This document shows, piece by piece, positions 4,301 to 63,810 of a stretch of DNA of 64,000 nt. Below the pieces are notes generated by a model. That model saw only the letters and a program-made list of their open reading frames with translations. It had not been told where the DNA came from and made no database searches. The position numbers and the translations under genes were made by a program. This DNA is from a virus (Duplodnaviria > Caudoviricetes): positions 22,187 to 86,186 of IMG/VR virus record IMGVR_UViG_3300030620_000004; one strand, 5' to 3'. Position 1 is the first letter of the stretch, and each line of letters starts with the position of its first letter.

Positions 4301-4340
4301 CGACGGGCGAATGGAATCCCGGGATTCCATTCGCCCGTCG
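4301..4340. repeat. Dispersed palindrome copy 1 (core 4311-4330; perfect 40-bp palindrome overall)
   Basis: CGACGGGCGA-ATGGAATCCCGGGATTCCAT-TCGCCCGTCG. Confidence 0.95.
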
Positions 4341-4350
4341 ACCCCTACAC

Positions 4351-5901
4351 TCACGCCATTGCGAGGTACGGAAGCGGAGCAGGCGCCTTGCCGTGGTGGC
4401 TGCTCAGCAGAGCACCCGCCCCGGCCCTGATGTCGTCGGCCCGGAAGGGGTCGGTCTCGACCTCGTGCGCGTAGCGCGTGAAGGCGTTGACCACGCTGGC
4501 CCGGCTGACGCCGTATTCCTCCGCAGCCTCATCGGCACGGTGCATCTCCAAGAGCTTCGGCACAGCGTCCTCGCGCCGGCCTCGCACGGGCACCAAGTCC
4601 CGCTCCAGAATGCCATTGAAGATGCCAGGCAACACGGCCTCGACAGGCAGTGAAGCCAAGTCGTCGCGCGTCGTGCCCTGCACAGCCTTGATCAGCTCAC
4701 GCCCCTGCTCATTGCGAGCGTACGTCCACGCCCGTCGGAAGGCGTCGACTGAGGTTAACGCCTGATTGAAGGCGTCCCTGAACGACGCCGCAAGCGCCTG
4801 CACCGAGCCTTGGTGCCTCAGGCGCACGTCCACGCCAATGGCCTTGCTCAAGATGATGAGATTCAGGCACAGGTTGCGCCAGATCGTCGACTGCACACGA
4901 ATCGCGTGTCCGCCGACGTCGCCCGAGGTCACGATCACGCCGGCCTTGAACACTTCGCCTGCGACGTAGTCCGCAGCCGGCACATCAGAGTGCCACATCC
5001 CTTCCAGGCGGAAGCGTTCGCCATCGTAGTCAAGCGAACCGCGAGCGTCGCTCGGGAAGGCCATCTGCAGCGCTTCGCCGATCTTGTCCGCGTCGAACGA
5101 CGTGTACTTGGGCGAGACCGCACCATAGGCGACCCGCGTGGCGCCAACCTTGCGCGTGCGCACGACCACTTCCTTGACGTGGTCTCCGGCGCCACGCTCA
5201 GATTCACCCAGCGCCACGGCCCAGTGATTGAAGTTGATGCTGCGCAGCTGCGTCGGACAATCGTTGAGGTACGCCGTACCACTCGCGCACGGCATGCGCT
5301 GCATGAGGCCAGCGAAAATGCGCTCATTGATCGGCATGCGCGCACCCTGCAACACCTGATGACTGTCGGGCAATGCGAGCTTGCCGCTCGACGTCATCCG
5401 CAAGTCTGCGAGCCGCACGACCGGCAAATCCTGCCGGTCCTCGGCTCGCACGTGCGCAACCAAGCTAGACGCCAACTCCTGTGCGAACGGCTTCGCGTCG
5501 TGCTCAACCTGGCTCGCATGAGCGTTCTCGACGCCGATTGAGTTCACCCGAGTGCCGAGCCGATACACCGGCTCGGCAAGAACGAACCCGTTCTCGCTCG
5601 CGATCTGCGCGTCGCGTTCTCCTCGCTCGCGTCCCGAGGCACTGACGCCGTCGCCGTCGAGATCGTCCACTGGTGGCTTCACCAAAGCAACACTAGGTGC
5701 GTGCGGCTTCACCTTGCCGATCGGGATGGCGTCTCGGACTAGTTCACTGATTCGCGTCACCTTGGGGACTCCGCCGTACTTCGCGTGCAACTCGTCGCAC
5801 GCTTCCTGGTACGTAGCCGCGTTCACCCGGCGCGTTTCTCCTTCGAGCGAGACGATGTGGGTTGCTGGTTCGGACTGGGGAATTGGGGTCGATTGAGTCA
5901 T
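4351..5901 (-). CDS. DUF932-like phage protein
   Basis: Start MTQSTP at 5901 follows AGGAAGTGAA. VSPKYTSFD..GVIVTSGDVGG..VQSTIWRNLCLN..RHQG resembles DUF932/DUF945. Confidence 0.6.
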   Translation of the reverse strand: MTQSTPIPQSEPATHIVSLEGETRRVNAATYQEACDELHAKYGGVPKVTRISELVRDAIPIGKVKPHAPSVALVKPPVDDLDGDGVSASGRERGERDAQIASENGFVLAEPVYRLGTRVNSIGVENAHASQVEHDAKPFAQELASSLVAHVRAEDRQDLPVVRLADLRMTSSGKLALPDSHQVLQGARMPINERIFAGLMQRMPCASGTAYLNDCPTQLRSINFNHWAVALGESERGAGDHVKEVVVRTRKVGATRVAYGAVSPKYTSFDADKIGEALQMAFPSDARGSLDYDGERFRLEGMWHSDVPAADYVAGEVFKAGVIVTSGDVGGHAIRVQSTIWRNLCLNLIILSKAIGVDVRLRHQGSVQALAASFRDAFNQALTSVDAFRRAWTYARNEQGRELIKAVQGTTRDDLASLPVEAVLPGIFNGILERDLVPVRGRREDAVPKLLEMHRADEAAEEYGVSRASVVNAFTRYAHEVETDPFRADDIRAGAGALLSSHHGKAPAPLPYLAMA

Positions 5902-6029
5902 TTCACTTCCTTTGGTTTGGCGCGGAGCCCCGTGCCAAACCCATGGTCGCTCAATTGCGCGCATGATGCCAGCAATTAGTGCTCTACCCCCCGACCCATG
6001 AGTCAATTGGGACCCCTTGGGGGGCCCTG

Positions 6030-6176
6030 GGGCCCTGGCCTTGCCCTTGGGGCCCTGGGCTTGCCCTTGGGCCCCTGGCCTTGCCCTTGGGGCCCTGGGC
6101 TTGCCCTTGGGCCCCTGGCCTTGCCCTTGGGGCCCTGGGCTTGCCCTTGGGCCCCTGGCCTTGCCCTTGGGGCCCT
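6030..6176. repeat. Intergenic array of seven 20-bp direct repeats (alternating GGGCCCTGGGCTTGCCCTTG / GGCCCCTGGCCTTGCCCTTG)
   Basis: Read directly; period 20 with a 40-bp higher-order alternation. Confidence 0.95.
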
Positions 6177-6412
6177 CAGCCTTGCTGGCGCTTCGGACCA
6201 CGACGGCCGCGACGGCCTGCCCGAGGGTCGTCGAGCCCTGCATCGACGAGCCGTTTGAGCCAGCGGAAGACCGTCGACTTGTTGACACCGAGCTCAACCG
6301 ACACCCCCCCGACATCGCCCAAGTGGCGCGAGAACAGCACGCGCAGTCGCGAATGCGCTTCTCGCGGTTTGCGCAAGACGAGTTCACTCAACTGTACAAA
6401 GCGGAACGACAT
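6176..6412 (-). CDS. Small helix-turn-helix DNA-binding protein
   Basis: GDVGGVSVELGVNKSTVFRWLKRL. Confidence 0.75.
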   Translation of the reverse strand: MSFRFVQLSELVLRKPREAHSRLRVLFSRHLGDVGGVSVELGVNKSTVFRWLKRLVDAGLDDPRAGRRGRRGPKRQQG

Positions 6413-6431
6413 TCCAAATGGATGATACCGC

Positions 6432-6578
6432 TCAACCCCAGCTCTTGATCAGAGCCGCGACTGCCAACGGGTCTTCGAGACTCTCGCCGTGGCGACTCGC
6501 AGCCAACGCCTGCGCGATCTCTTGGGTGCTCATGTCCTTGCAAGCCTCGGCCAGTTTGGCCTTTACGTCGTCGTTCAT
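6432..6578 (-). CDS. Hypothetical 48-aa protein (MNDDVKAKL...)
   Basis: Below the track size cut-off. ATGA-coupled to the upstream gene. Confidence 0.5.
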   Translation of the reverse strand: MNDDVKAKLAEACKDMSTQEIAQALAASRHGESLEDPLAVAALIKSWG

Positions 6579-6820
6579 TGCAGCAGTTCCTTTGCTCGTC
6601 GAAGCCACTCGGGGTCTTGGACAGCTCGAGCGGCACTCAGTTCACCTTCCAAGCTAGCCTGTTTGATGAAGCGATACAACTGACGCCGCGAGATCGCGAA
6701 GATCGTCGCAGCCCGATTCACGTTCCCATCGCTAGCGCGCAAGACGGACCTGAGTTCTGCGACGGCGCCCTGTCGATCCTGCTTCCACCTCGTGCCGATC
6801 CCGGTCTTGATGTACGACAC
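6575..6820 (-). CDS. Fis-family (HTH_8-like) DNA-binding protein
   Basis: SDGNVNRAATIFAISRRQLYRFIK. Confidence 0.8.
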   Translation of the reverse strand: MSYIKTGIGTRWKQDRQGAVAELRSVLRASDGNVNRAATIFAISRRQLYRFIKQASLEGELSAARAVQDPEWLRRAKELLQ

Positions 6821-9419: not shown

Positions 9420-9886
9420 GGGGTTCGACGTCGAGTGGTGCGTCGGCGCGCCTGCGCCACTCGGTAGTCGCTCAGCAACGGTCGACCAAACTGCAAGCGC
9501 CACCCAATCCGAAAGTCACTGTCGCGGTCGCGTTGGCTGTCCTTGTACTCCTCGCGCCGCCACGTCCAGCGCATGAAGTCGACCATCGAAAGTTGCTCGC
9601 CGCTGAACTCGTGCTTGAGCATGCGCATCGACGCGCCCACTGCCGGGCGGAACTGGTCTCGCACTTCGTCGGGCACCACCTTGTAGACGTGTTGGTGCAG
9701 CAAGCAGTAGAGCCCGACGAAGTGCTTCGGCGTGAACTCGCTCCACGCCTGCCGATCCTTCAGCGCATTCGTCTCCGTCAAGAGCTGCTCGAAGTCTCGC
9801 TTCGGCATCGCTCGTTTTTTCTGCGGACGCCGCTCAGGCTCGGGCTCCGTCCCGAAGTCAGTGAACTGCGTCTGCTTAACTGCCAT
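9416..9886 (-). CDS. Hypothetical protein
   Basis: 156-aa ORF, ATGA-coupled to the helicase. Confidence 0.6.
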   Translation of the reverse strand: MAVKQTQFTDFGTEPEPERRPQKKRAMPKRDFEQLLTETNALKDRQAWSEFTPKHFVGLYCLLHQHVYKVVPDEVRDQFRPAVGASMRMLKHEFSGEQLSMVDFMRWTWRREEYKDSQRDRDSDFRIGWRLQFGRPLLSDYRVAQARRRTTRRRTP

Positions 9887-10214
9887 GAAGTTCCTTCAAC
9901 CGACCGGAGTAGGTGACTCGCTTCATCTCGAAGTCGGCGTGCATCAATACCTCGACGAGCGCACGCGCACGCGAGTACACCTCGTGCGCCTTCTCGCCAT
10001 CGCGCACGTGCACCATCGCTTGCACCGGGCCGACTTCGAGCAACCCCCCGTTACCCATGGGGTACACCTCACGCCCGCTGGTCAACGTGAAGGAATCGCC
10101 CGCTCGAAGCCCATGGTCGAGCGCAATGGAAACCCGGGATTCCATGTCGCCTTCAACCACGGGCTCTGAGGAAACCGAGCTGCTCGTCGTCCTGCCTGTT
10201 CTTGTCGTCTTCAC
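9876..10214 (-). CDS. Hypothetical protein containing palindrome copy 2
   Basis: Fills the operon gap; the palindrome is read as MESRVSI. Confidence 0.55.
   Translation of the reverse strand: MKTTRTGRTTSSSVSSEPVVEGDMESRVSIALDHGLRAGDSFTLTSGREVYPMGNGGLLEVGPVQAMVHVRDGEKAHEVYSRARALVEVLMHADFEMKRVTYSGRLKELHGS
10126..10145. repeat. Dispersed palindrome copy 2
   Basis: ATGGAAACCCGGGATTCCAT. Confidence 0.95.
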
Positions 10215-11700
10215 GCTGCTCCTCTTCTCTGATGAATTGCTTCGCGTTCACCCAGTGCTCGCCATCAAGCACCTTGACCTTCGGCTTCCACCGCGAGATG
10301 TGGATCAACGGCCACAAGCCGAACACCTTGCGGTCCCAGAAATAGTACACGATGACCGCATCCTGCTCGACCTTGCCAGTCTCGGGTGACGGCCGTTCGT
10401 ATCGCCCAGTGAACTGGGCGAACTGTTGCTTGCCGCTCTTGCCTGCGCATGGTGCCGCAAAGATGCCGCGACTCACGAGCGGTAGGTCAAAGCCGACGCC
10501 GATCGCCTGATACGTGCCGACCGCTTGATTCAAACTGCATTCGCGCAACTCGCGTTCGGTCCGGTCGAACTCGTCGCGAGACTCGGCACCGCCGAGCAGC
10601 AAACCAGAGTCCCACCCACGCGCGAGGCTCATCGAGTTGAGCGTAGCGCAGTGCTCCCGATGCCACGCCAGCGTGATCGTCGGCTCACCCTCCTCGACGC
10701 ACCAGCCCAGCACCTCCATGACGAGCGCATTACGGGCCTTGTTCCCTTCGAGCTCAACCGTCAACCGCTGCTGATTGTGGCTCTGGGCCCGCTTGAGCGG
10801 CGCGAGCTCTGTGTACCAGGGAGCATCGAACTCCGTCGGAACCACTCGGATTTCAGCGTCGATGATGGCCCCCTGGGCAATCAAGGTTTCACGTGAAACC
10901 TCGAGCAGCACGGGGCCGAACACGTCGTGAACCAGGAACTCCTTCTTGTCCGAACGCCGTTCATCGGCCGTCAGCCCAACCCGGTACACCGCCTTCAACA
11001 CGTCGATGACATCGAAGAAGGTTGACGCCGCGAACCGCTGCGCCTCGTCACCGATGACGAGGCCGAAGACGTCGGCGTACTCATGTGCACAGTTTCGCAG
11101 TGTCTGCTGCATGCCGATGGTCAACGGCCTGATAACCCGCTTGTTGCCTCTGATGATTCCGACCTCATCGGCCTCGAGCCCCAAGTTCTTGAGCGCCCCA
11201 TCAACCCACTGCTTGAAGATGCGTTCCGTCGGAACGACGACGAGCGTCGCCAAATTGATCTCGGAGGCGATGGCAAAGCCCGTGGTAGTTTTTCCGCTTC
11301 CCTGGGGACTTCGGATGAGTGCCGTGCCACTCAAGCCAAGTTCGTGCGTGCAGACGCGCTTGATCTCCTCTTGGTACGGACGCAGTCGAATGCGATGCTC
11401 TGGGAGGGGACTCGCCAAGGGGCGCCCCATGCACTTCGCTCGGCGCACGCGGAGAGCGCCGAGCACGTCGCGCAGCTTGTCGAGCGCACCTCGTGGGACC
11501 GACAGCTCGCAGGTCGAAAGCTCCCAGCTGCGCAGCGTCTCCGGAACTCCCCGAGGTACGAACCCTCGAATCGCCTTGAGCTTGCGATACTCTGGATTGT
11601 CGTAGGTGAACTGCCGTTGCACCTTGAGGACCAACGCGACGCTCAACTGCGACAGCGGGATTCTGATGCGGTTGTCGATGAGGACTTGCACTTGCCTCAT
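10153..11700 (-). CDS. Superfamily 2 (DExH-box) helicase
   Basis: LRPYQ Q-motif; SPQGSGKT; IGDEAQ; GLTA; IGVGFDLP; QFTGRYER. Confidence 0.92.
   Translation of the reverse strand: MRQVQVLIDNRIRIPLSQLSVALVLKVQRQFTYDNPEYRKLKAIRGFVPRGVPETLRSWELSTCELSVPRGALDKLRDVLGALRVRRAKCMGRPLASPLPEHRIRLRPYQEEIKRVCTHELGLSGTALIRSPQGSGKTTTGFAIASEINLATLVVVPTERIFKQWVDGALKNLGLEADEVGIIRGNKRVIRPLTIGMQQTLRNCAHEYADVFGLVIGDEAQRFAASTFFDVIDVLKAVYRVGLTADERRSDKKEFLVHDVFGPVLLEVSRETLIAQGAIIDAEIRVVPTEFDAPWYTELAPLKRAQSHNQQRLTVELEGNKARNALVMEVLGWCVEEGEPTITLAWHREHCATLNSMSLARGWDSGLLLGGAESRDEFDRTERELRECSLNQAVGTYQAIGVGFDLPLVSRGIFAAPCAGKSGKQQFAQFTGRYERPSPETGKVEQDAVIVYYFWDRKVFGLWPLIHISRWKPKVKVLDGEHWVNAKQFIREEEQREDDKNRQDDEQLGFLRARG
10885..10900. 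promoter_or_regulatory. parS-like palindrome
   Basis: GGTTTCACGTGAAACC; the inner 14 bp equal the canonical parS core. Confidence 0.35.
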
Positions 11701-11761
11701 GATGCCGCTTTCTTTCTTCGGATCTAAAATGCACGGCAGCAGCCAAAGCGCGCTAGCGCTT

Positions 11762-11834
11762 GCGACGCGGCGGAGCCGCGTCGCCAAGGATGCTTTCAAA
11801 TCCTAGATCCCTTGCTGACTGAAACAGCAAGGGA
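11762..11834. promoter_or_regulatory. Two 10-bp hairpins upstream of the replication operon
   Basis: GCGACGCGGC/GCCGCGTCGC (11762-11784) and TCCCTTGCTG/CAGCAAGGGA (11808-11834). Function unknown. Confidence 0.4.
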
Positions 11835-11883
11835 CTCCGCGGTATAATAGGGGCGGTTTCGGTGGGTGGGTCGCGGAAAATGC

Positions 11884-12252
11884 TCAGCGTCGAGGAGGCC
11901 GCACACTCTCCCTGCGGACCTCTGGCAAGACGCTTTCGACGATGCGTTCCGCCTTTACGCGAGTCACTCGCGTCAGCACGTTCGTCTTGTCGTGCATGAG
12001 ATTGACGGCCATCGCAAGCTTGGCGTCGCCTCGCAAGCCAGCAAGCTCGCCTGCTCGGTGTTCGACCTCGAGCGCGCTCTGCTTGGCGAAGGTGCGCAAG
12101 GTGTGGCTGCGAAGCCACGCGACGAGCGCTGCGGTCGCTGCTGGCACCAGCACGATCAATGCTTGTGCAACGATGCTCTCCAGCTGCGAGTACGGGGTTG
12201 CTTCGTTGGGCGAGATCGACTGGTAGACGTAGAACATGCGAGTGGAGACCAT
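11884..12252 (-). CDS. Holin-like membrane protein (LL-H-like)
   Basis: One TM segment (ALIVLVPAATAALVAWL) followed by AKQSALEVE..GDAKL. Confidence 0.5.
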   Translation of the reverse strand: MVSTRMFYVYQSISPNEATPYSQLESIVAQALIVLVPAATAALVAWLRSHTLRTFAKQSALEVEHRAGELAGLRGDAKLAMAVNLMHDKTNVLTRVTRVKAERIVESVLPEVRRESVRPPRR

Positions 12253-12272
12253 GCGCCTATTCTAGCAGGGAA

Positions 12273-12292
12273 ATGGAAACCCGGGATTCCAT
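12273..12292. repeat. Dispersed palindrome copy 3
   Basis: ATGGAAACCCGGGATTCCAT, just upstream of an extended -10-like TGCTAGAAT (minus strand, 12259-12267). Confidence 0.95.
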
Positions 12293-12721
12293 TCACGGGT
12301 CGAGCGGCAAGCCTTCGAGCGGCGGGTTTCCTTGAGCCAGGTTTCGTCGCACGCGCTCGGCTGCCTGTCGCGCACGTGGACTGTGCTTGAAGTCTTCCGC
12401 CGAGCTCCCGGCAAGCATGATGAGCATGTAGTCGATGCGCGAACTGAGCTTGTCGATGGCTTCGCCCGTCTTCTCGTAGTTTCTGTCGAGCTGCTCGATC
12501 TTGGCTTCGACGCCCGCGTTGGTCTTCTCGTGCTGCTGCTGCGCTGCGGCCATCGCTGCGGTCGACGCTTCCTTGGCAATCTGCGTGACGTCCTCGTGGG
12601 TCGGCATCTTGGTCCACGCCACGATGACAGCAGCCACGAGCGCGATGACGCCGATCAAGTTCGTCGGCGTCAGCAGGATTGGCGTCTTCGCGGTGAACGG
12701 GCGTTCCGAGACTTGAGGCAC
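12293..12721 (-). CDS. Membrane protein with a coiled coil (holin/XhlA-like)
   Basis: TM LIGVIALVAAVIVAW followed by a heptad-rich segment. Confidence 0.5.
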   Translation of the reverse strand: MPQVSERPFTAKTPILLTPTNLIGVIALVAAVIVAWTKMPTHEDVTQIAKEASTAAMAAAQQQHEKTNAGVEAKIEQLDRNYEKTGEAIDKLSSRIDYMLIMLAGSSAEDFKHSPRARQAAERVRRNLAQGNPPLEGLPLDP

Positions 12722-12732
12722 GGGCAGCCCTT

Positions 12733-14448
12733 TCAAAGCCGGTAACCCAAGAGTTCCAGGTTGCTCGTGACCGCACTGAATTGCCACTGCCCGCCGAGCG
12801 GCGCACTCGACCCGCTTGACGCAGTCAGGCTTGCGATGCCGGTTCGGAGCAAGTTCGCCGCAGGTGCATCGGGGTCGAAGACGAGCGGCATCCAGCTCGT
12901 GTGCGTCACGAGCCGCTCGGGTACCACGGTGCCATCGCCGATGACACTCTGCTGCGGGTAGAGGTCCAGGTGCAGCAACGTCTCGTGCCTCGAGAAGAAG
13001 CCAAGGTTGTCGTAAGTCGCGCTTGGTGGCGGAGCTGCCACGAACGTCTCGACGGATGGCGGCGTCCACTGAAAGGCAATCCCGACCATGTTCTTGGGCA
13101 GGCCGAAGTCGTTGCTATCCCGGAGTATCGCGAGGTCCCACGTCATGAACTGGGTCTGCGCAACGGCCAGCTGAAACGTCAACAAGCGCTGTTGACCGGG
13201 TGAAAAGGTGTAACCCGCAGGGTACAAGACTTCACGCCCACAGCCCGCGCACGGCACCATGCTCGCGCCACCGCCCGCGTTCTGGATGACGTGGCCCATG
13301 AAGAGCATCACGCCGTTGGCAGTGCCCGTCAGCCCCGTCGACGCAGGCAGGCTCACATTCGCAGCGAGCCCGCGAGTGTCGACCTTCGTTTTGTCACTCA
13401 ACGTATTGCGACCTGCGACGAGGATTCCTCGAGGCCCGTAGGGCGCGCGAATCGAGAGGCTGGGGGCAGCACCTTCTGAGTAGCGACTCCACCGCGGTAG
13501 CCCATTGGGGAAGAGCGCGAAGAGAGGAATCGCGCCAGGGTCCGAGCCTCCACTGATGGGCCCGAGAATGCCGAGGTTGTTCGTCGCGTTCTCGGGGTCT
13601 GCAAAGTCGAACTTCACGTCACCCGTGCCCATCGCGCCAGTAGGCGTCGACTTCATCAGCTTACCGCCTGCGAGGTAGCCCCCGAAGGCGGACCAAGCTT
13701 CACCCGTCGCTTCCGACGCAACCACGCTGAAGTTGAAGTCGTAGGGCGTTCGGTTGTCGTGTCGCGTGACGCCCTGGCTGTTCTGCGTCGAGCGGTCCTG
13801 CCACAGCGGGCGGACATCCCAGAACGTCGCATCTGCCCACGTGAGCGCCCCGTCGGGCACCGATGCGACGACGAGCGGCAATGTGTTCGTCAACGCCGGC
13901 ATGCCCAACCCCGGCGTGCCTCGAATGATGGTGTAGCTCAGCCGCTTCGACACCACCTTGTTCACGGTCTGCGGCGTGAACAAGCCCGTTGCGGGATCGA
14001 AGATGTCTCGGTTGTCGGTCTCGAGCACCAGGTCGACGACGTCGGCGAGCACGACGTCGATGCGCCTGCTCCCGCTCGCGTTGGCGAGGAAGGTCAGCAC
14101 ACCCCCCGTCTGCAAGCCTGGGTCGTTCACCAGCTTGTACGGGTCGTCGTCGAGCCCTGGCGTCGCGTCTGGGTCCACCACCCCGAGGACCCCCGCATCG
14201 ACGAAGAGACTCGTCGGGTCGTCGACCTTCACGAACAAGCCGCCGAACACGTCGGCCACCATCGGCACCTGCCCGCCCGTGATCACGGGACTCGTGTGCC
14301 CAGGCCTGCTCGAGAAGTAGACGTCGGTGGATGCACGTGCCAGTTGCGCCGCTCGCGCCTGCCCGATCATGTCCTGCAACCGATTGTGATCGTTGCTGAT
14401 GACACGCTCGCGCGTGTTGAAGACTACTCGCTTTCCGCCGTTGGCCAT
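12733..14448 (-). CDS. Tail fibre/baseplate-distal virion protein, paralog 1
   Basis: 571 aa, downstream of baseplate genes; visibly paralogous to 14468-16171. Confidence 0.65.
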   Translation of the reverse strand: MANGGKRVVFNTRERVISNDHNRLQDMIGQARAAQLARASTDVYFSSRPGHTSPVITGGQVPMVADVFGGLFVKVDDPTSLFVDAGVLGVVDPDATPGLDDDPYKLVNDPGLQTGGVLTFLANASGSRRIDVVLADVVDLVLETDNRDIFDPATGLFTPQTVNKVVSKRLSYTIIRGTPGLGMPALTNTLPLVVASVPDGALTWADATFWDVRPLWQDRSTQNSQGVTRHDNRTPYDFNFSVVASEATGEAWSAFGGYLAGGKLMKSTPTGAMGTGDVKFDFADPENATNNLGILGPISGGSDPGAIPLFALFPNGLPRWSRYSEGAAPSLSIRAPYGPRGILVAGRNTLSDKTKVDTRGLAANVSLPASTGLTGTANGVMLFMGHVIQNAGGGASMVPCAGCGREVLYPAGYTFSPGQQRLLTFQLAVAQTQFMTWDLAILRDSNDFGLPKNMVGIAFQWTPPSVETFVAAPPPSATYDNLGFFSRHETLLHLDLYPQQSVIGDGTVVPERLVTHTSWMPLVFDPDAPAANLLRTGIASLTASSGSSAPLGGQWQFSAVTSNLELLGYRL

Positions 14449-14467
14449 GCCGTTCCTTCTGAGCCTT

Positions 14468-16171
14468 TTAGAGCTCGTAACCTAGCAGCAATACTATCGA
14501 GGTACCCGTGCCGTCGAACTTCCACAACGACGCCGCCGCCGGCATCGGTCCAGTCGACGGCACGTCGATGCCACACTCCAGACGCACCGGTGATTGCTCG
14601 TGCTGAATCGGCACTTCGACCTCGGGCCCTGCGTAGCTGATCAAGTCGACCGGCAGCACAGTACCGTCACCGAGTGCACGGTGCGACCACGAGCCACCCC
14701 ACTGCATGGCTTCCTGCTGCACGTAGAAGCCGATGCGCGCATAGTCGACTAGGGGCGGCGGTGAACCGACAGTCGTCGTGATCGGCGGCGGGTCCCATCG
14801 CAGCTTGACTCGACGCGCGTTGCGCGGACAGGCGATCTTGCCAGCGTCCCACCACTCCGTCTGCACGTTGTGAAAAATGAAGTTCGCCTGCGCAGCCCAC
14901 GTGCCTGTGAGCGTGTCCTCGACACGTATCTCGCTGCTCGGCCCCTCCTCTTGCGAGAACAGAATCCACCGCCCAGTGCCGAGCGAACGCACGGGGCTTC
15001 GATCGCCCGCTACCGTGTTTTGCACGTGCAGCATGTAAAGCAGCACGCCGTCGGCAGTGCCCGTTAACCCGGTGCTGGGAGGAATCTGTACGGCGCTGGC
15101 AAGCCCGTTCACGTCGACCTTGTTGTAGTCCTCGAAGCCCACCCGAGCGCGACCTGCGACGAGCAGCCCAGTCGTCCCGTAGGGCGCTCGAATCGCTAGC
15201 CCAGGCGCAGCACCTTCTGAGTATCGAGCCCACCTGGGAAGCCCACCCGGAAAGAGCAGGAACACCGGGTTCGCCCCGAGGTCGTCGGGCGGAGAGATCA
15301 ACCCGTTGAAGTTGTCGTTGGCAGTCGCGTTTGCCGGAGCGTCCGCGTCGAATACGACGTCGCCGAGCCCTGGCACGCTTGTCATCAGTCGGCCACCCAC
15401 CAGATACCCGTTCCACTCGGTGTACGCGAAGCCAAAGTGATCAGCAGAAACGTCCGCGTAGAAGTCGAAGTCGTAGTACCTGCGACGCTCGTTCTGCCGC
15501 TTGTAGTACGTGATGCGGTCGGCCACCAATGGGCGAACATCCCAGAACGTGACGTCGGCCCACGATGCGGTCCCGCTCGGCACCGACGCGACTGCCAGGG
15601 GAATCGTGTTCGTCAACGCCGGCAGGCCTGCCCCTGGAGTCCCCCGAAGAATGCTGTAGACCAAGCGCTTCGCAGTGACCTTGTTCAGCAACATTGGGGT
15701 GAACAGCCCGGTCGCTGTGTCGAACACGTCCCGGGTGTCGGTCTCGAGTACCTGGTTCGCCACGTCTGCCACCACGACGTCGATGCGCCTGCTTCCGCTC
15801 ACGTTGCCGAGCCACGGCAGGATGCCAGCGAGCGCCATGCCTGGGTCGTCGACGAGCTTATACGGGTCGTCGTCAGGACCCGGAGCCCCGTCGGGGTCGA
15901 TGACGCCGACGACGCCAGGGTCGACGAAGAGACTGCTCGCATTGTCGACCTTCACGAACAGCCCGCCGTAGACATCCGCGAGCATCGGAGTCTGGCCACC
16001 TGCACTGATCTGCGCAGCGTAGCCCGGCGTGCGCACGTTGTACTGGTCAGCATGTGACCGTGCCAGCTGCACCGCGCGCGCTTGCCCGACCATGTCCTGC
16101 AAGCGGTCATGGTCAGCACTGACGATTCGCTCGCGAACGTTGAACTCGACTCTTTTTCCGCCGTTGCTCAT
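14468..16171 (-). CDS. Tail fibre/baseplate-distal virion protein, paralog 2
   Basis: N-terminus MSNGGKRVEFNVRERIVSADHDRLQDM versus MANGGKRVVFNTRERVISNDHNRLQDM in paralog 1. Confidence 0.65.
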   Translation of the reverse strand: MSNGGKRVEFNVRERIVSADHDRLQDMVGQARAVQLARSHADQYNVRTPGYAAQISAGGQTPMLADVYGGLFVKVDNASSLFVDPGVVGVIDPDGAPGPDDDPYKLVDDPGMALAGILPWLGNVSGSRRIDVVVADVANQVLETDTRDVFDTATGLFTPMLLNKVTAKRLVYSILRGTPGAGLPALTNTIPLAVASVPSGTASWADVTFWDVRPLVADRITYYKRQNERRRYYDFDFYADVSADHFGFAYTEWNGYLVGGRLMTSVPGLGDVVFDADAPANATANDNFNGLISPPDDLGANPVFLLFPGGLPRWARYSEGAAPGLAIRAPYGTTGLLVAGRARVGFEDYNKVDVNGLASAVQIPPSTGLTGTADGVLLYMLHVQNTVAGDRSPVRSLGTGRWILFSQEEGPSSEIRVEDTLTGTWAAQANFIFHNVQTEWWDAGKIACPRNARRVKLRWDPPPITTTVGSPPPLVDYARIGFYVQQEAMQWGGSWSHRALGDGTVLPVDLISYAGPEVEVPIQHEQSPVRLECGIDVPSTGPMPAAASLWKFDGTGTSIVLLLGYEL

Positions 16172-18114: not shown

Positions 18115-18115
18115 G

Positions 18116-20181: not shown

Positions 20182-20211
20182 GCACCCAATGCTAGCGCAA
20201 CTGGCCCCCCC

Positions 20212-20231
20212 ATGGAATCCCGGGTTTCCAT
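20212..20231. repeat. Dispersed palindrome copy 4
   Basis: ATGGAATCCCGGGTTTCCAT. Confidence 0.95.
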
Positions 20232-37003: not shown

Positions 37004-37151
37004 TGGTGGTTTCTCCGAGTGAGGTAGGAGGGGTTTGCTCGAACCGTCTCAACCAGAAACCACCTTGACTTGGACCGCGGGGTGGGCCGCGGAGCGCGGC
37101 GAGTCGGCTTGATCTGCTTGCAATACTGCCGTGACCCCGCGGGCGAGTCAA

Positions 37152-45052: not shown

Positions 45053-45081
45053 ATCTTACTGCCTCGCAGGAAACCGCACAA
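45053..45081 (-). promoter_or_regulatory. Sigma70-like promoter
   Basis: TTGTGC-17 nt-TAAGAT, 9 nt before the ATG at 45043. Confidence 0.55.
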
Positions 45082-45104
45082 GCAACCACTCACCAGCCAG
45101 CGTC

Positions 45105-45134
45105 CGGCAATGGAAACCCGGGTTTCCATTGCCG
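45105..45134. repeat. Dispersed palindrome copy 6 (core 45110-45129)
   Basis: CGGCA-ATGGAAACCCGGGTTTCCAT-TGCCG. Confidence 0.95.
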
Positions 45135-51517: not shown

Positions 51518-52135
51518 TCACGTCGAACCGCGACCTCGACGACTCGCACTGCCACCCGATGACACGAGACTGCTCTGCCGTCGCTTGCGTGTCGGTTCGA
51601 ACCCACTTGATGGTTCATCAGGCGGCGCGTCCCCTGCAACCACGGGCTCGGGCTCCACATGGAATCCCGGGATTCCATGTTCATCAGGCGGTGTCGCCGC
51701 GTCGGGTGGCGGCGGCTCCGTGTCTTCGACCTCCTCCACGTCGGGCACGGCGGGCTGGGCCTTCGAGCTCGACACCTCGACCGATCGCCCTGGCGAATCA
51801 CCAAGCATCTTGACCTCGCCCAAGCTCGGCCAGCTGCCCGTGAAGCGATACGCTCGGTCGTCGATGTACACCATCGCTTTTGGTTTCAGCGAGATGAGCA
51901 CCTTATCCGCGCGCGACTCCTCGAGCCCGTGCGCCTTGAGGTACCAGCGAATCAGGTCAACCGCAGCAGGCGTCGTCGCGCGCGTAGTGTGAATCGCTAC
52001 TCGATACCCCGCATCCTGCACGCTGCGAATGAAGTCGAGCGCCCCCTCGACAGGTGGGTCAGGCAGGCGGTTCTCGATGTACCCGCTCTTGTAGCTGTTG
52101 ACGACACCATCGAAGTCCAACGCGATCGTGCTCAT
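51518..52135 (-). CDS. HAD-superfamily phosphatase with a low-complexity tail
   Basis: IALDFDGV (motif I), HTTR (II), KPKAMVYIDDRA (III/IV). Confidence 0.85.
   Translation of the reverse strand: MSTIALDFDGVVNSYKSGYIENRLPDPPVEGALDFIRSVQDAGYRVAIHTTRATTPAAVDLIRWYLKAHGLEESRADKVLISLKPKAMVYIDDRAYRFTGSWPSLGEVKMLGDSPGRSVEVSSSKAQPAVPDVEEVEDTEPPPPDAATPPDEHGIPGFHVEPEPVVAGDAPPDEPSSGFEPTRKRRQSSLVSSGGSASRRGRGST
51659..51678. repeat. Dispersed palindrome copy 7 (intragenic)
   Basis: ATGGAATCCCGGGATTCCAT, read as HGIPGFH. Confidence 0.95.
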
Positions 52136-52306
52136 TCTGGTTCCCTTCGAAAAGGCCGGGCAGGGTGGAAAGACGAACAACTAGGAGTGAGCAAACCACG
52201 CGGGAACATCCACCCTGCCCTGGCTGCAACACAGACCTGGCAGGAATGCCCCCAACTAAAGGGGCCTTGGCGCTAGCCTACACCCCGAGCGCTTGGAGTG
52301 CCAGCC

Positions 52307-52666
52307 TTAACCCGGCGTTGACGACGTCGAGCGATTGCAGCCTCTGCTCGACGCGCATGGCGGTTCTGACCCGTGTTCTTCCGCAGCCAACGCGGATACA
52401 GCAAGCACGGGGTTTCGAAGTACGTGGGTCTCGGGCAAGTCGGAATGATCTAGAGCGGCTTGCATGCGCAGCCGCTCTTCAGCAGCACGCAACTGCCCTT
52501 CATGCACGAGCTCGCGTTCGAGTTTCTCAGCCGAGCGCTTGAGCGCACGCAGCCGACTTTCGGCGAGCTGCTGGAAGTACCAAGCCTCGATTGGTGCGAT
52601 GCCTTCCGCACGCAAGGTCGACTCGATGTCCGATACAGTTGGGTTCAGCCGGGCGATCACCGCCAC
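52307..52666 (-). CDS. Hypothetical protein
   Basis: 119-aa helical ORF. Confidence 0.5.
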   Translation of the reverse strand: MAVIARLNPTVSDIESTLRAEGIAPIEAWYFQQLAESRLRALKRSAEKLERELVHEGQLRAAEERLRMQAALDHSDLPETHVLRNPVLAVSALAAEEHGSEPPCASSRGCNRSTSSTPG

Positions 52667-52796
52667 CCAAGGGCCAAAGGGGCGGGGTCCCGATTCCCGG
52701 GTCCTAGGTGGCTACCCCAGCGACTTTCGGCCTTCCCCCCTATCCCAGGGGGTCCCCTTGGGGAAAGTCTCCCTAGCGAGCGCCCAGAGAGGCCAA

Positions 52797-52900
52797 AAGG
52801 CCCCCCAAGGCCCCCCAACTGGGGGGCCTTGGGGGGCCTTGGGGGGCCTTGGGGGGCCTTGGGGGGCCTTGGGGGGCCTTGGGGGGCCTTGGGGGGCCTT
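52797..52900. repeat. Intergenic (GGGGGGCCTT)x8 array preceded by two inverted copies
   Basis: Direct copies at 52821-52900; AAGGCCCCCC x2 at 52797-52816. Confidence 0.95.
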
Positions 52901-52967
52901 GGCCCCTAAAGGGCGAGCCCGATGGCAAAGCACGCCAGGATGGCGCCCAGGCAAGAGCAAGTCGAGG

Positions 52968-53294
52968 TCAGTGAGCTCTCGCACGACGTCCCCCTTTCCG
53001 CGCCTTGGCTTGGACCCGGTCGGCCATCTCGTCGAGCGCGCAAGGCCCGTAGTATTCAACGATCTTCGCCCAGCACGCGAGCCAGCCATCGCCTTCGAAC
53101 CGCATCTCCTCGCGAGTGTTCACCAGGGCGTGGCCGTGCTTGTTCTCTAGGGCTTTCCACTCGGGACCGAGCAAGGCGCGGAACAGTTTCCCTGCTTGCT
53201 GCACACTTGCGATCTCAAGCGCCCGCTCGAGCGCCGCCTTGGCAATTGCGGTCTGCTCGGGTGTCGAGGGCACAGGGTATCTCGGCAGTCTCAT
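52968..53294 (-). CDS. Hypothetical protein
   Basis: ATGA-coupled. Confidence 0.55.
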   Translation of the reverse strand: MRLPRYPVPSTPEQTAIAKAALERALEIASVQQAGKLFRALLGPEWKALENKHGHALVNTREEMRFEGDGWLACWAKIVEYYGPCALDEMADRVQAKARKGGRRARAH

Positions 53295-53788
53295 GCGACG
53301 CCCTTTCGAATCGAGGGTAAGCGACGACCGAGCTCGTCGCGGAGTTCCTGGCTCGCGCCTTCCCAGGGTTCACGAAACTCGTAGTCAGGTGCGAGGTACT
53401 TGCTCATCAGACCGCGCTTGAAGACGAGCTCGAACATCAATGCCGCTGGCTGCGACCCGAACGGCGCTTTCAGCGAGAGCTCCGACAGGAACCCCAGCAC
53501 TTCGGCGTCCGTTGGGGGAACCACGTCCTGCCCAGCAAGTGCGCGCTCGACGAGCTCCTGCACGTGCGCCCGGTACAGCTCAGTCGACTTGCCGCGCAAA
53601 AGGCCGTCCGGAACTAGGTACTTGAAGAGCGCACTAACGGCGGCCCGCTTGAGAGGGTGTCGGCGCGTGGCTTGTTCGAGCTCGGCTTCTGCGACAGCCA
53701 TGAACGCGAACGTCTGCGAGACCACGCTGCCCGGCGCACTCCACAGCGGCTCGAAGGCAGCGACCCAAGGCAGAGCCTGCGGCTTCAC
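53291..53788 (-). CDS. Hypothetical protein
   Basis: GTG start coupled to the upstream stop. Confidence 0.55.
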   Translation of the reverse strand: MKPQALPWVAAFEPLWSAPGSVVSQTFAFMAVAEAELEQATRRHPLKRAAVSALFKYLVPDGLLRGKSTELYRAHVQELVERALAGQDVVPPTDAEVLGFLSELSLKAPFGSQPAALMFELVFKRGLMSKYLAPDYEFREPWEGASQELRDELGRRLPSIRKGVA

Positions 53789-54672: not shown

Positions 54673-54692
54673 ATGGAAACCCGGGTTTCCAC
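54673..54692. repeat. Dispersed palindrome copy 8 (one terminal mismatch)
   Basis: ATGGAAACCCGGGTTTCCAC. Confidence 0.9.
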
Positions 54693-54832
54693 GGGGCGCC
54701 CCTAAACCCCCTGCCCTGGCCCCCCAATGGGCGAACCAAAAGGCCCCCCAAGCGCCTTTCCCCAGGGGGCCTACCCTGGCCCCCCGACCCCTGCCCGGTC
54801 TCCCCTAGAGGCCCCTGGCCCGAACCCCAGAG

Positions 54833-58486: not shown

Positions 58487-58950
58487 TCAGAGATTGTCCT
58501 TGCCGAGGTTCAGCTCCTCGGGCGGTGCCAACAGGCGCACGCGAGCATCAGTGATGACGACCTGCCCACGGTGCACGTCTCGAAACCACCCCTTGATGTC
58601 CGGGAACACGAACCGCCCCTCGGCTGTGAACTCGTGCGTCGTGTAGACCGGCGCTCGCATCCAGCCGCGCTTGATGAGCCAGTGGAGCCACCTCAGGTGC
58701 GAGACCTTCCAATGGTCCCACCACGTTGCTGGCCAGCTCAGCCGCTCGCGGTAGGTCTGACGCCCGGACCCGAGGATGCAACTGCGCAGCTCGAACACCA
58801 GCCCACGCCCAAGCAGGTCGAGCTGGTCGCGCAACCGGACCTCGGTCATGACCAGCTCGTGCTGGCTTAACTCCTGAGCAACCGAGAACCGCACCACTTC
58901 GAGGCACTGCTCGCGAAGTAGCACCGGGTCCAGCTCAGCCTTCACAAGAA
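58487..58950 (-). CDS. Hypothetical protein (start uncertain)
   Basis: 3' part of track ORF 58487-59095. Confidence 0.5.
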
Positions 58951-59286
58951 CCTCGCAAGCAAGAACAAGGCGACAGCTGCGAGCAGCACCACGTTCAACG
59001 CGAACGACCACATCCCACCCCGGACATAGCGTCGCAGCTCGATGACGTCGACCTTCACGCCCACAGGGAAGTGGCGCGAGATTGCAGCCTTCCACTCTTC
59101 AGCGGTCGGCTCGGTGCGGAGCGTTGCCAAGTAGTACACCTGGACCGACGGCGCGCCAAGCCGCTCGCGCAAGAGCACCCGCACTGCCAAGTCTTCCTCG
59201 AGCCCGTACCTGATGCTCGACAGCGTGCCGTGCCGCACGCCGAGCGAAACCCGCTGCACGAACACGTCGCTCTGCTGTTTGCCCAT
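58942..59286 (-). CDS. Hypothetical protein with a C-terminal TM segment
   Basis: Start MGKQQS; WSFALNVVLLAAVALFLL. Confidence 0.55.
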   Translation of the reverse strand: MGKQQSDVFVQRVSLGVRHGTLSSIRYGLEEDLAVRVLLRERLGAPSVQVYYLATLRTEPTAEEWKAAISRHFPVGVKVDVIELRRYVRGGMWSFALNVVLLAAVALFLLARFL

Positions 59287-59302
59287 GTCCTGATGATGCC
59301 GC

Positions 59303-59322
59303 ATGGAATCCCGGGATTCCAT
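59303..59322. repeat. Dispersed palindrome copy 9
   Basis: ATGGAATCCCGGGATTCCAT, 16 bp upstream of the ATG at 59286. Confidence 0.95.
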
Positions 59323-61124: not shown

Positions 61125-61153
61125 AGCCTACCCGCACCTCGCATCGGCTGCAA
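61125..61153 (-). promoter_or_regulatory. Sigma70-like promoter, probably leaderless
   Basis: TTGCAG-17 nt-TAGGCT, 8 nt before the ATG at 61116. Confidence 0.6.
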
Positions 61154-61162
61154 GACCCAATC

Positions 61163-61196
61163 GTCGGCAATGGAAACCCGGGTTTCCATTGCCGAC
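61163..61196. repeat. Dispersed palindrome copy 10 (core 61170-61189; perfect 34 bp)
   Basis: GTCGGCA-ATGGAAACCCGGGTTTCCAT-TGCCGAC. Confidence 0.95.
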
Positions 61197-61199: not shown

Positions 61200-61565
61200 T
61201 CACTCCCAAGGCAGCTTCAGCTGGTTTCGATGGCGGTCATCATGCAGGCGCGAAAACATGCGCCTGCAATTCTCCCGCCCCGTACACGGTTCAAGGTGCG
61301 CCCAGCGCACGCACCGCCGGTTGCGGCAAGTATGGTCGACCTCGAGCTCGCCAAGATCACCGAAGAAGAGAATCGCCATGATGCGGTGCGCACTCGCGTG
61401 CACCCGTTTCCCTGCCGTCGTCTTCACCGTCACGTGCGAGTAGCCCTTCGCAGTGCCGCCCATCCACACCAGACACTCCCCCTTCCGCCTGAGCCGTCTG
61501 AAGATGCGCGGCAACAAGCGGCTCTGCACGTAGTCGTCGTCAATCTCGTGTTCACCGTAGCGCAT
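61200..61565 (-). CDS. HNH endonuclease (HNH_3-like)
   Basis: CLVWMG..GYS..AHRI..VDHTCRNRRCV..HLEPCTGREN. Confidence 0.88.
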   Translation of the reverse strand: MRYGEHEIDDDYVQSRLLPRIFRRLRRKGECLVWMGGTAKGYSHVTVKTTAGKRVHASAHRIMAILFFGDLGELEVDHTCRNRRCVRWAHLEPCTGRENCRRMFSRLHDDRHRNQLKLPWE

Positions 61566-61903: not shown

Positions 61904-61921
61904 GCCCTACAATGCCGCGCC

Positions 61922-62320: not shown

Positions 62321-62385
62321 GCGCCCAAGCGTATCAGCCGTCGTCGGGTTCCTCAAGCGGGATGGTGCGAGCCTTCGCGCGCCAC

Positions 62386-63222
62386 TTACCGACGTCCCCC
62401 AAGGATATCGGCTTCACCGACGATGAGCTTGCGGTACTGCACCCACCCATCGAAGTTGCTCATGAAGCGCATCCGCTCCTCCTCCTCGCTCGTCATCGGC
62501 CGCGCCACGTGCTCGAAGGGACTCATGTGCCCGGCTTCGAGCAACCGGTCGTGCAACGCAATGTCCGCCTCTGGGTTCCGCTTGCCGTCGTGGGTCAGAT
62601 AGCTGACGCGAGCACAGCGCCCGACGCTCATCTTGACGATGTTCTCGGAGCGCCATTCTTGCAGTTCATCTGGCGTCGTCAACGGCAAGTGCCACTCGTC
62701 CTGGGCAAGCAGCCTCGGCGCACTCGCCACCATCGCATCGCGCATGAGCACAGCCACCTTGCGGATGTCGGGATGTGCAGCTGCGTGGCACCGCAAGTGG
62801 AAGAAGTTGCTCCACTCCGTCGACGACACGATGACAGTGTGCCAGAGGAAGGGCTCGAGCAGGCGATTGGTCAGTTGCTTGTGCACACCGCAGTCGAGCA
62901 AACGCTGGGCTTGGTCGACCGCCGCATAGAGTGCCTGCAACCAGACGGCCTCGGCCTTCGACGCCTCGCGTGGGTCGAGCAGCTGCTCTGCCTGCATACC
63001 CTTCTGGTTCTGGCCCCACTCGCTCGGCACGTACGGGTGCTCGCACACCATGGCCAGCATCCGCTCGACGGGGATAGCCCTCGACGATGCGGAGTTGCGC
63101 GAGAACACGCGGTGCGTGTTGAACTCGGCAAGGACGATGCGAGGGAAGGTCACTTCGAGCGTCGTCAGGCGAACCCCAGCGGGGCTGATGCTATCGGCAA
63201 GGATGCGGGCTGCGTGGGTCAT
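62386..63222 (-). CDS. thyX: FAD-dependent thymidylate synthase
   Basis: EFNTHRVFSRNSASSR (xHRx7S); NRLLEP; EWSNFFHLR; CARVSY; HMSPFEH. Confidence 0.92.
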   Translation of the reverse strand: MTHAARILADSISPAGVRLTTLEVTFPRIVLAEFNTHRVFSRNSASSRAIPVERMLAMVCEHPYVPSEWGQNQKGMQAEQLLDPREASKAEAVWLQALYAAVDQAQRLLDCGVHKQLTNRLLEPFLWHTVIVSSTEWSNFFHLRCHAAAHPDIRKVAVLMRDAMVASAPRLLAQDEWHLPLTTPDELQEWRSENIVKMSVGRCARVSYLTHDGKRNPEADIALHDRLLEAGHMSPFEHVARPMTSEEEERMRFMSNFDGWVQYRKLIVGEADILGGRR

Positions 63223-63378
63223 GCCCCATCATAGCGTCAGCACCTTTCGGTTCGCCGACGATGCCCTCTTCACCCGGCAGTTGCGTACCCGGCATGAGCT
63301 CGCGTCGCGATTGTACGCTCAGGCTCGCCCACCCCTCAGGTAGCGACGCTTCACCGGGGTCGGGCGGCCTGCTCAACT

Positions 63379-63588
63379 TCATACTCGCTTCACCTCGACC
63401 GAACCGCAAACGTTGCCATAGATGTCGCGCAATTGGTCGTCGGCTTCGGGCGCTTTGCACAACGCCGGACGTCGTGACAGTTGAGCGCTCACCTTGCGCG
63501 GAACACTCTCGAGCACAGCAGCAATCTCCCCGAAGTACGGCAGCTCGAACTCGATATGCACCTTCAGCACGGCAGAACCTCGGCGCAC
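63379..63588 (-). CDS. Hypothetical protein
   Basis: Small ORF packed in the operon. Confidence 0.45.
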   Translation of the reverse strand: MRRGSAVLKVHIEFELPYFGEIAAVLESVPRKVSAQLSRRPALCKAPEADDQLRDIYGNVCGSVEVKRV

Positions 63589-63776
63589 CCTGCAAAGCAG
63601 TTCGCGACGCCGTCTTCGCGCGTCACCCAGTGCGCGCCATGCGAGACCCCGCCGTCAACGTGATCGTAGGTGTACTGCCTGCCGTCCACCGCCCGAAAGC
63701 GCCGCCCCTTGCGGAGCGTATCGATGCGCACGCGCTGTTCCGCAGACCACTCAGCATCCGGGCTCCACCGCGTCAC
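63564..63776 (-). CDS. Hypothetical protein
   Basis: Small ORF 14 bp downstream of palindrome 11. Confidence 0.45.
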   Translation of the reverse strand: MTRWSPDAEWSAEQRVRIDTLRKGRRFRAVDGRQYTYDHVDGGVSHGAHWVTREDGVANCFAGCAEVLPC

Positions 63777-63790
63777 TCGAACCCTCGCGA

Positions 63791-63810
63791 ATGGAATCCC
63801 GGGTTTCCAT
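63791..63810. repeat. Dispersed palindrome copy 11
   Basis: ATGGAATCCCGGGTTTCCAT. Confidence 0.95.

Follow-up and report, generated by a model that had tools for sequence, protein, structure and literature searches.

The stretch analysed here, called the window below, comprises 64,000 nucleotides (bases 22187-86186 of an 86,186-bp IMG/VR virus record), along which a 20-bp palindrome, ATGGAAWCCCGGGWTTCCAT, recurs at positions 4311, 10126, 12273, 20212, 37159, 45110, 51659, 54673, 59303, 61170 and 63791. Ten of these eleven copies match ATGGAAWCCCGGGWTTCCAT exactly, the one at 54673 being a single terminal base off, and 100 dinucleotide-preserving shuffles produced no match; every copy listed in a sequence-only reading of the same stretch was thus located. 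Two further copies lie to the left of the window, at genome positions 5556 and 20569, which brings the total in the full genome to 13. The record is classed as 'linear'; its ends overlap by 205 bp with one mismatch (window 63796-64000 against genome bases 1-205), which indicates that the phage genome is essentially complete, at ~85,981 bp. The contig break cuts through the thirteenth copy, at window position 63791.

Nearly every gene of this soil phage lies on the minus strand. The gene set is that of a myovirus (portal, scaffold, major head, sheath and baseplate), accompanied by T4-like replication genes (DnaB-like helicase, DnaG-type primase, ResIII helicase and family B polymerase), by genes for recombination and other functions (RecA/UvsX-like recombinase, Mre11-like, Rad50-like, PD-(D/E)XK nuclease, ParB_N protein and a phage sigma factor), and by ThyX, an HNH endonuclease and an MT-A70 methylase. 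The phage and four of its relatives (five genomes, four of them complete) gave no tyrosine or serine integrase, and the group therefore looks virulent. A megablast search with 17 kb of sequence gave no match to an isolated phage. The copies of the palindrome in the window, given without strand, are placed as follows:

4311-4330, no strand: copy ATGGAATCCCGGGATTCCAT, 20 nt past the stop of a DUF932 gene, with the next start 46 nt on
10126-10145, no strand: copy 7 nt past the stop of the ResIII helicase gene and 11 nt from the ATG with which the DnaB/primase operon begins
12273-12292, no strand: copy flush with the upstream stop codon; on the minus strand there follow 8 nt, then TGCTAGAAT (12259-12264), then an ATG at 12252, as in a leaderless-type promoter
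20212-20231, no strand: copy flush with the stop of a gene for 97 residues; TAGCAT (20189-20194) 17 nt downstream, baseplate ATG at 20181; a syntenic copy exists in relative L022
37159-37178, no strand: copy at the junction of the scaffold and major head genes, 21 nt past the stop; on the minus strand, 7 nt on, TTGACT (37146-37151), a 17-nt spacer and CAGTAT (37123-37128)
45110-45129, no strand: copy 10 nt past the stop of a gene for 116 residues; TAAGAT (45053-45058), then an ATG at 45043
51659-51678, no strand: copy in frame within the open reading frame (ORF) 51518-52135 (minus strand)
54673-54692, no strand: copy with one terminal substitution, within a 278-nt intergenic region
59303-59322, no strand: copy 64 nt past a stop; its last two bases may belong to the initiation codon of the gene at 58942-59304
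61170-61189, no strand: copy 10 nt past the stop of the HNH endonuclease gene (61200-61565); the minus strand continues with TTGCAG, 17 nt of spacer, TAGGCT (61125-61130) and an ATG at 61116
63791-63810, no strand: copy with a GTG start, preceded by a GAGGG ribosome-binding site, 14 nt downstream; the junction is too short for a promoter

By our own gene calls, ten of these copies are intergenic and one (51659) lies inside an ORF; the earlier count of nine and two comes close, copies 10126 and 59303 touching possible start codons. The site centre falls in non-coding DNA at eight of the nine scored sites, with a non-coding share of 7.4% (binomial P = 8e-9). Nine of the eleven scorable copies start 0-21 nt past an upstream stop codon, and the distance from copy to next start ranges from 11 to about 200 nt. 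As the sequence-only reading had described, copies occur in early, structural and accessory modules alike and are missing from 20.3-37.1 kb, our own scan giving none between 20231 and 37159.

The symmetry of the palindrome is continuous and free of any spacer, and variation is confined, again as described before, to positions 7 and 14 (A or T, written W) and to one terminal base. The two W positions vary independently, so that four of the 13 copies are hybrids, i.e., they hold a W:W mismatch. Across the whole phage genome no extra copy appeared when two mismatches were allowed in the 16-bp core, and there were no isolated half-sites. The palindrome is, in short, a sharply bounded family of identical sites. 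The flanks of the copies are mutually unrelated, two pairs excepted, and bracketing direct repeats are found only at copy 51659.

Some junctions deserve a comment of their own. The one at 10126 is only 7 nt and 11 nt wide on the two sides of the copy and thus leaves no space for a promoter; relative L030 has an unrelated 32-nt spacer there, and relative G004 has its own palindrome (helicase/156-residue protein junction). Copies 45110 and 61170 share 39 identical bp (45096-45134 and 61156-61194), upstream stop codon included, and the proteins encoded upstream (116 residues, and the HNH endonuclease of 121 residues) are unrelated. Copy 51659 has a 13-nt exact direct repeat, CCGCCTGATGAAC, on both sides (51679-51691 and 51613-51625). 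The copy and 33 nt lie inside this repeat, forming a 66-nt unit that is in frame, in a Pro/Asp/Glu-rich tail; the 33-nt part has 13 nt in common with the flank of copy 10126. From its sequence, the structure at 51613-51691 looks like the product of an insertion or duplication event.

With regard to the central CCCGGG, 43 occurrences were observed in the genome against 39 expected, which rules out restriction-site avoidance around this hexamer. Over the whole genome, AGATCT and GGATCC are absent (11.6 and 1.6 expected, respectively), ATGCAT, ACGCGT, ATCGAT and CTGCAG are 3-7-fold rarer than expected, and GATC itself is not avoided. The absence or rarity of these other hexamers may reflect restriction avoidance.

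The same word is present in one relative, represented by 13 short contigs from a single metagenome assembly with 65-75% DNA identity to the studied phage; the core is perfect in all of its copies, with C...G flanks. Two of them are clearly syntenic with those described above (before the head gene and before the baseplate gene), and others sit at junctions that are copy-free in the studied phage. Insertions or deletions of genes are seen beside several copies of this relative: an extra gene for 117 residues stands between a copy and the helicase, ~1.5 kb of extra genes are bounded by a copy, and a 600-nt insert comes with a copy. The syntenic head-gene copy bears a 7-bp extension, the sequence of which differs in the two phages.

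To look beyond this pair, viral contigs were searched with the major head protein, giving 52 related loci. Most of them have their own repeated perfect palindrome, and at least 17 different words were counted, e.g., TCGGAAGATCGATCTTCCGA, ACGGAAACACGTGTTTCCGT, ACGGATGATCGATCATCCGT, CAATTGGATCGATCCAATTG, CCTTGAGGTCGACCTCAAGG, CTGGGAACCCGGGTTCCCAG and GGCGAAACCCGGGTTTCGCC. Twelve complete or nearly complete related genomes hold 9-26 copies each of their own perfect palindrome, conserved over 16 to ~30 bp, and one relative, G015 (97% complete), holds none. The centres of the words vary across the family (CCCGGG, CACGTG, ATCGAT, GTCGAC, CTCGAG, GGCGCC, ACCGGT), and every lineage's word is symmetric right through its centre. 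The word of the L060/L081 lineage (ATGGATGATC...) and that of G008 (ACGGATGATC...) are one half-site position apart. Sites are enriched in intergenic DNA in eight genomes, with P = 1.6e-4 to 1e-16; G009 and G011-G013, the genomes with the highest GC content, were left out of the placement statistics, since gene calls are unreliable there. Spacing is more even than random in nine of the twelve genomes.

The words differ between lineages at addresses that the lineages share. About 175-200 nt upstream of the major head gene, five different words are found in five lineages. In the linker of the sigma-factor gene, G004 and G008 carry their own words at the same position and in the same frame, encoding TETRVSV and TDDRSSV, respectively. 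Such a pattern indicates that an orthologous site was rewritten along with the other copies of the genome, even changing the protein. Apart from the sigma factor, in-gene copies of relatives lie in the genes for primase (residue 211), the Rad50-like protein (residue 407) and DnaB (residue 8), and these three exclude a constitutive terminator. Overall, copies that are identical inside a genome and differ between genomes, at addresses that are conserved, call for either a reader that acts in trans and is specific to the lineage or a homogenising process of unusual efficiency.

Outside this phage group, the exact word was found at three loci in 596 Gb of bacterial sequence (185,579 species genomes), where ~2 are expected by chance by calculation, and in one unrelated viral contig. 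An abundant host repeat had been set beforehand as the observation that would speak against a genome-wide phage site; the chance-level matches rule out a repeat of the repetitive extragenic palindromic (REP) kind, with the proviso that the true host may be unrepresented in this collection. A 9.4-Mb metagenome-assembled genome (MAG) labelled 'uncultured delta proteobacterium' contains exactly two copies, 3 kb apart (L007 3763 and 6758; L007 = G001:C7:8001-16000). They flank a DnaB-like gene 51-54% identical to that of the phage, the surrounding genes being ORFans in Pfam. This locus may be a prophage remnant or a mis-binned piece of a phage, and as such may hint at the host group. In the literature, searches for the literal word returned no paper, and a keyword search gave none on lineage-specific dispersed palindromes in phages.

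Such evidence induces us to propose, at what we would call an even chance, that the word is a cis site in duplex DNA for a symmetric (homodimeric or higher) phage protein private to each lineage, for which only a candidate can be put forward. Symmetry through the centre together with independent half-sites is more readily explained by a symmetric protein bound to duplex DNA than by a hairpin in RNA; with the in-gene copies and the lack of U-tracts, these features lead us to prefer a duplex-DNA site to a ParB/Noc site, a mobile repeat or the hairpin of a terminator. The idea of a single dimeric protein with sites all over the genome, put forward in the sequence-only reading, is likewise favoured by the central symmetry, the independent half-sites and the private words at shared addresses.

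As for what such a protein would do, our best guess, drawn by analogy, is an operator or roadblock. The sites would lie at the borders between transcription units, in a genome whose transcription runs almost wholly one way, and, where a promoter follows, would stand just upstream of, or over, the -35 place of a -10-only, often leaderless, promoter. The bound protein would halt read-through from the upstream unit and would repress or time the downstream promoter, as a palindromic functional analogue of stoperators. We infer, then, that a protein reads the site, that its binding blocks or times transcription, and which protein this may be.

Promoter-like boxes follow five of the 13 copies, three of them leaderless in type (6-8 nt between -10 box and ATG); they were read by eye, all fail the criteria of a strict sigma-70 scan, and so we infer these boxes rather than detect them. 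Most copies of G007 and G014 precede, by 3-13 nt, a -10 box with a leaderless ATG, and so take the place expected of a -35 element. The spacing between site and box varies, as one would expect of a repressor or roadblock more than of a phased activator. At other places in the genome, a conserved, early-promoter-like word, GCGGCATGATGGGG, is followed by ATG. Besides the palindrome, a second intergenic word is conserved: [T/C]ATGATGGG, preceded by GCGG or GCT, stands at 63232, 60524, 60306, 57462 and 63974 (minus strand), with an ATG 2-3 nt on at three of the sites, and to judge from its sequence resembles a promoter that has a -10 element alone and serves leaderless mRNAs. G003, G007 and G014 have related forms (CATAATGGGG, CATAGTAGGGG, CATCATGGGG), often straight after their palindromes.

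Three genes of the window come into question when the reader and the transcription machinery are considered:

6176-6412, minus strand: HTH_23-type protein of 78 residues with an Arg-rich tail, candidate reader
6575-6820, minus strand: Fis/NtrC-type HTH_8 protein, second candidate reader
2838-3470, minus strand: phage sigma factor (Sigma70_r2) with conserved counterparts in nine or more related genomes, palindrome-free G015 included

Both helix-turn-helix (HTH) proteins had been named as possible binders, and they fare differently. We would tentatively take the HTH_23 protein as the best candidate reader. Its homologues were found in 11 of the 12 site-bearing genomes and are lacking in G015, the match there being a cross-match to a Fis-type ORF; its recognition helix varies between lineages, the initial 'KST' occurring only in the two phages that share a word. 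The HTH_8 protein, on the other hand, loses ground: its recognition helix (ISRRQLxRxI) is nearly invariant across lineages, and the protein is present in G015 and undetected in G007. The third binder proposed earlier, a 'DUF3102-like' protein at 1622-2812, is not supported either, having no Pfam or PHROG match and belonging to a family that is also present in G015. We also considered the ParB_N protein, a small version of which is encoded in every genome tested. In the studied phage it has 218 residues, ParB_N as its sole Pfam domain and no recognisable HTH, and its motif reads GEHRWK (GGHQR in G003 and G004) as against GERRxR (PMC11790492). A ribbon-helix-helix (RHH)-like tail might have made it a reader, which is unlikely, as the tail differs between the two same-word phages. 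G003 alone encodes a ParB-like protein of 569 residues with a Cys-rich, zinc-ribbon-like segment, two genes downstream of a palindrome (L043/G003 51664-53373).

Around these genes, a 349-nt non-coding gap (5827-6175) between the HTH_23 gene and the DUF932 gene holds an iteron-like array of 20-bp repeats; in the close relative L017, a palindrome copy overlapping the 3' end of the HTH gene takes the place of this gap. A conserved cluster left of the window, at genome positions 9770-19036 (L032), comprises the genes for the RecA/UvsX-like, Mre11-like, Rad50-like, PD-(D/E)XK and ParB_N proteins and for a protein of 161 residues. The studied phage has an insert between the PD-(D/E)XK and ParB_N genes, which is missing in G003 and G004.

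Several observations sit badly with a private protein docking on duplex DNA. No HTH_23 homologue was found in G008 despite its 17 copies, neither HTH protein had a significantly matching homologue within 40 kb of the MAG copies, and presence/absence profiling found no conserved family that is in all site-bearing genomes and missing in G015. The distance between site and promoter varies, and several sites have no promoter at all. Since the phages are virulent and integrase-free, a global repressor of the lysogeny type can be left aside, and the presence of one protein at early, replication and structural units alike is hard to account for. The conserved palindrome of G006 is ~30 bp or longer, a length unusual for a simple dimer and suggestive of some part played by hairpin formation. 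Flank complementarity of at least 2 bp was found in 51 of 189 copies family-wide, against ~12 expected.

The last two points lead to the possibility, unlikely in our view, that the functional form is a hairpin of RNA (or single-stranded DNA): a terminator, attenuator, insulator or 3'-end stabiliser after each unit, often fused to the next promoter, with copies kept identical by cassette recombination. In the studied phage, pairing beyond the word extends over a mean of 3.1 pairs versus 0.38 at random positions (P<1e-5), and many copies have complementary flanks of differing sequence (GCGA/TCGC, GTCA/TGAC, GGCA/TGCC), as does the 7-bp extension of the head-gene copy in the two same-word phages. 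About half of the copies form long perfect RNA hairpins of -32 to -46 kcal/mol (z -4 to -7), copy 4311 and its flanks making up a 40-bp perfect palindrome (-45.8 kcal/mol, z -7.5). The position shortly past stop codons, the promoter-like boxes after several copies, reminiscent of the early-promoter stem-loop (PeSL) cassettes (PMC2839356), and the lack of canonical terminators elsewhere on the coding strand would all suit a hairpin as well. Scans of that strand showed no enrichment of canonical terminators or of strict sigma-70 promoters, and no copy is among the terminator-like sites scanned; the only good canonical terminator-like site on it, a 12-bp G/C-rich stem followed by TTTT (54741-54772, minus strand), lies ~48 nt transcriptionally upstream of copy 54673. 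However, no copy is followed by a T-run that would give a U-tract, all nine copies of G004 lack flank complementarity, which indicates that the 20-mer itself is the functional unit, and a hairpin could form without identity of sequence and with a loop that is not self-complementary, yet every word has its symmetry running through the centre. A hairpin also has to cope with the W:W mismatch in four of 13 copies, with the copies inside the primase, Rad50-like, DnaB and sigma genes of relatives, and with the one only 11 nt before the ATG of the DnaB/primase operon. The asymmetry expected of RNA, strand-specific G:U wobble versus A:C, amounted to 4 versus 0 in the studied phage and was balanced (~6 versus 6) once relatives were included. 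Template switching can 'perfect' palindromes. Most simply, then, the extra flank complementarity at about half of the copies is a by-product of such perfecting or serves a secondary hairpin role, either of which explains it only in part.

Somewhat less probable still are repeats that propagate themselves or are homogenised by recombination, with no dedicated reader, through gene conversion or template switching, and that serve mainly as linkers for module exchange. Degenerate copies are indeed absent, the places of the copies change from one close relative to another, next to genes that have been inserted or deleted, and the phage has a full recombination kit (RecA/UvsX, Mre11/Rad50); the 39 bp shared by two copies with unrelated upstream genes and the 13-nt repeat around the in-ORF copy are of the kind that recombination would leave, and recombination at Cluster O repeats and PeSLs does make indels (PMC4351075, PMC2839356). 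Against this, a target-site duplication is seen at one copy only, flanks are otherwise unrelated save for the two pairs, and neither an integrase nor a REP-associated tyrosine transposase (RAYT) of the IS200 type (PF01797) was found in the five genomes, so that transposon-like insertion in general is ruled out. Moreover, homologous gene conversion would have very little to work on in 16-20 bp, the sites are more evenly spaced than random in most genomes, and an address keeps its site while the word changes, even in a protein-coding linker; the latter speaks for selection to match the genome's current word and not for mere copying.

Loading sites for a clamp of the ParB/KorB/Noc type, or for some other organiser of the genome that would bridge evenly spaced sites or slide away from them, seem to us very unlikely. 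Dispersed perfect palindromes are typical of ParB-family sites, and the O_B operators of KorB repress at short and long range (PMC11790492); the ubiquity of small ParB_N proteins, the even spacing and the 569-residue protein just downstream of a site in G003 are in line with such a clamp. Still, the ParB_N protein has neither an HTH nor the CTP-binding GERRxR, its RHH-like tail is unlike that of the same-word relative, and virulent phages do not need partition. The analogy with parS and the Noc site drawn in the sequence-only reading is not supported as a kinship, for word centres differ so widely within the family that CCCGGG (or CACGTG) is no more than one of many chance outcomes. Likeness to the Noc site is limited to the inner ~8 bp, TCCCGGGA, and carries no weight because the centre varies freely. 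Least probable of all, and by our estimate barely credible, are sites at which a nuclease of the phage (PD-(D/E)XK, HNH or a nuclease-like ParB_N protein) would cut or nick the DNA in a programmed way, with breaks handed over to Mre11/Rad50 and RecA for recombination-dependent replication. Homodimeric PD-(D/E)XK nucleases typically recognise palindromes, the RecA - Mre11 - Rad50 - PD-(D/E)XK - ParB_N cluster is kept in all lineages, and two records end in or beside a copy with imperfect terminal overlaps, namely that of the studied phage and that of G003 (71 bp, 91.5%, across a copy). Nevertheless, 13 to 26 breaks per genome would be hazardous, intergenic, promoter-proximal placement would have no obvious meaning, and the nuclease families are also present in palindrome-free G015. 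The ends of G007 and G008, clean 127-bp overlaps (circular assembly), are far from any site, which rules out a link between termini and sites as a general rule.

Returning to a protein-read site in duplex DNA, we compared it with known systems. Cluster O mycobacteriophages provide the closest published case, and the only published parallel found: a 17-bp dyad repeat, TGTTCGGNNNCCGAACA, present in more than 30 copies with invariant 7-bp arms and a variable 3-bp spacer; the authors (Cresawn et al. 2015) suspect dimeric DNA-binding proteins, the function being unknown (PMC4351075). Both systems consist of many short inverted repeats spread genome-wide, mostly in intergenic gaps and sometimes in ORFs, absent from the host and accompanied by indels. 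The differences are that the palindrome studied here is symmetric through its centre with no spacer, that one word serves all five Cluster O phages whereas here lineage-specific words occupy shared addresses, and that Cluster O phages are siphoviruses with a prolate head, a different host and no sequence relation. The stoperators of Cluster A phages, up to ~30 sites per genome with a motif that co-varies with the repressor, block initiation and elongation when bound (PMC6550527, PMC9283540). They too are numerous, lie in short intergenic gaps of co-directional operons and have a lineage-specific motif; unlike the identical perfect palindromes described here, they are asymmetric 13-bp sites, degenerate, oriented with transcription and read by a monomer, and they belong to the immunity of temperate phages, whereas the studied group has no integrase.

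In its dispersal, the palindrome is reminiscent of O_B, the palindromic operator of KorB, which is scattered over the ~60-kb replicon of the IncP plasmid RK2 both near promoters and far from them (PMC11790492); here, 13 copies are spread over 86 kb, five beside promoter-like boxes and the rest not. KorB, however, has a CTPase domain with GERRxR, a central DNA-binding domain and a C-terminal dimerisation domain, unlike the ParB_N protein of the phage, and no KorA or ParA partner was seen in the phage. PeSL cassettes, also from T4-like myoviruses, share the order of stop codon, stem-loop, promoter and start, the variable position of the stem-loop and an association with gene gain and loss (PMC2839356, PMC4122927). 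They combine a conserved sigma-70 promoter with variable stem-loops that have been shown to terminate; here an invariant palindrome is combined with variable or absent promoters, lacks U-tracts and lies inside essential genes in relatives, the last two features also setting it apart from an intrinsic terminator. REP/RAYT systems differ in being abundant in host chromosomes and in having the Y1 transposase (PF01797). As at least one defining feature of each known family is missing, we file the palindrome as a variant of dispersed operator-like sites and as a member of none of these families.

It is tempting to go one step further, and doubtful whether the step holds: virulent, T4-like soil myoviruses might replace sequence-independent terminators and operators by a 'private address word', one fast-evolving reader sitting at 10-26 evenly spaced palindromes as roadblock or insulator and as timing switch. 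Were this so, word and reader would change together and co-infecting relatives would become regulatorily incompatible, amounting to an 'immunity' or exclusion among lytic phages, and the concerted rewriting of all copies, in-gene ones included, would be an undescribed mode of regulon evolution. Whatever the fate of this idea, the occurrence of different words at one address offers a natural experiment for protein-DNA co-evolution. Uncultured phages could be barcoded by lineage with the private 20-mers, which could also supply synthetic biology with orthogonal operator/regulator pairs and mark the limits of operons where terminators are unrecognisable, and identification of the reader here would probably explain the Cluster O repeats too. 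If the docking of a private regulator is real, a single protein would organise and time about a dozen transcription units in a large virulent phage, and the whole regulon could be rewritten, even within coding sequence, when the preference of the regulator shifts.

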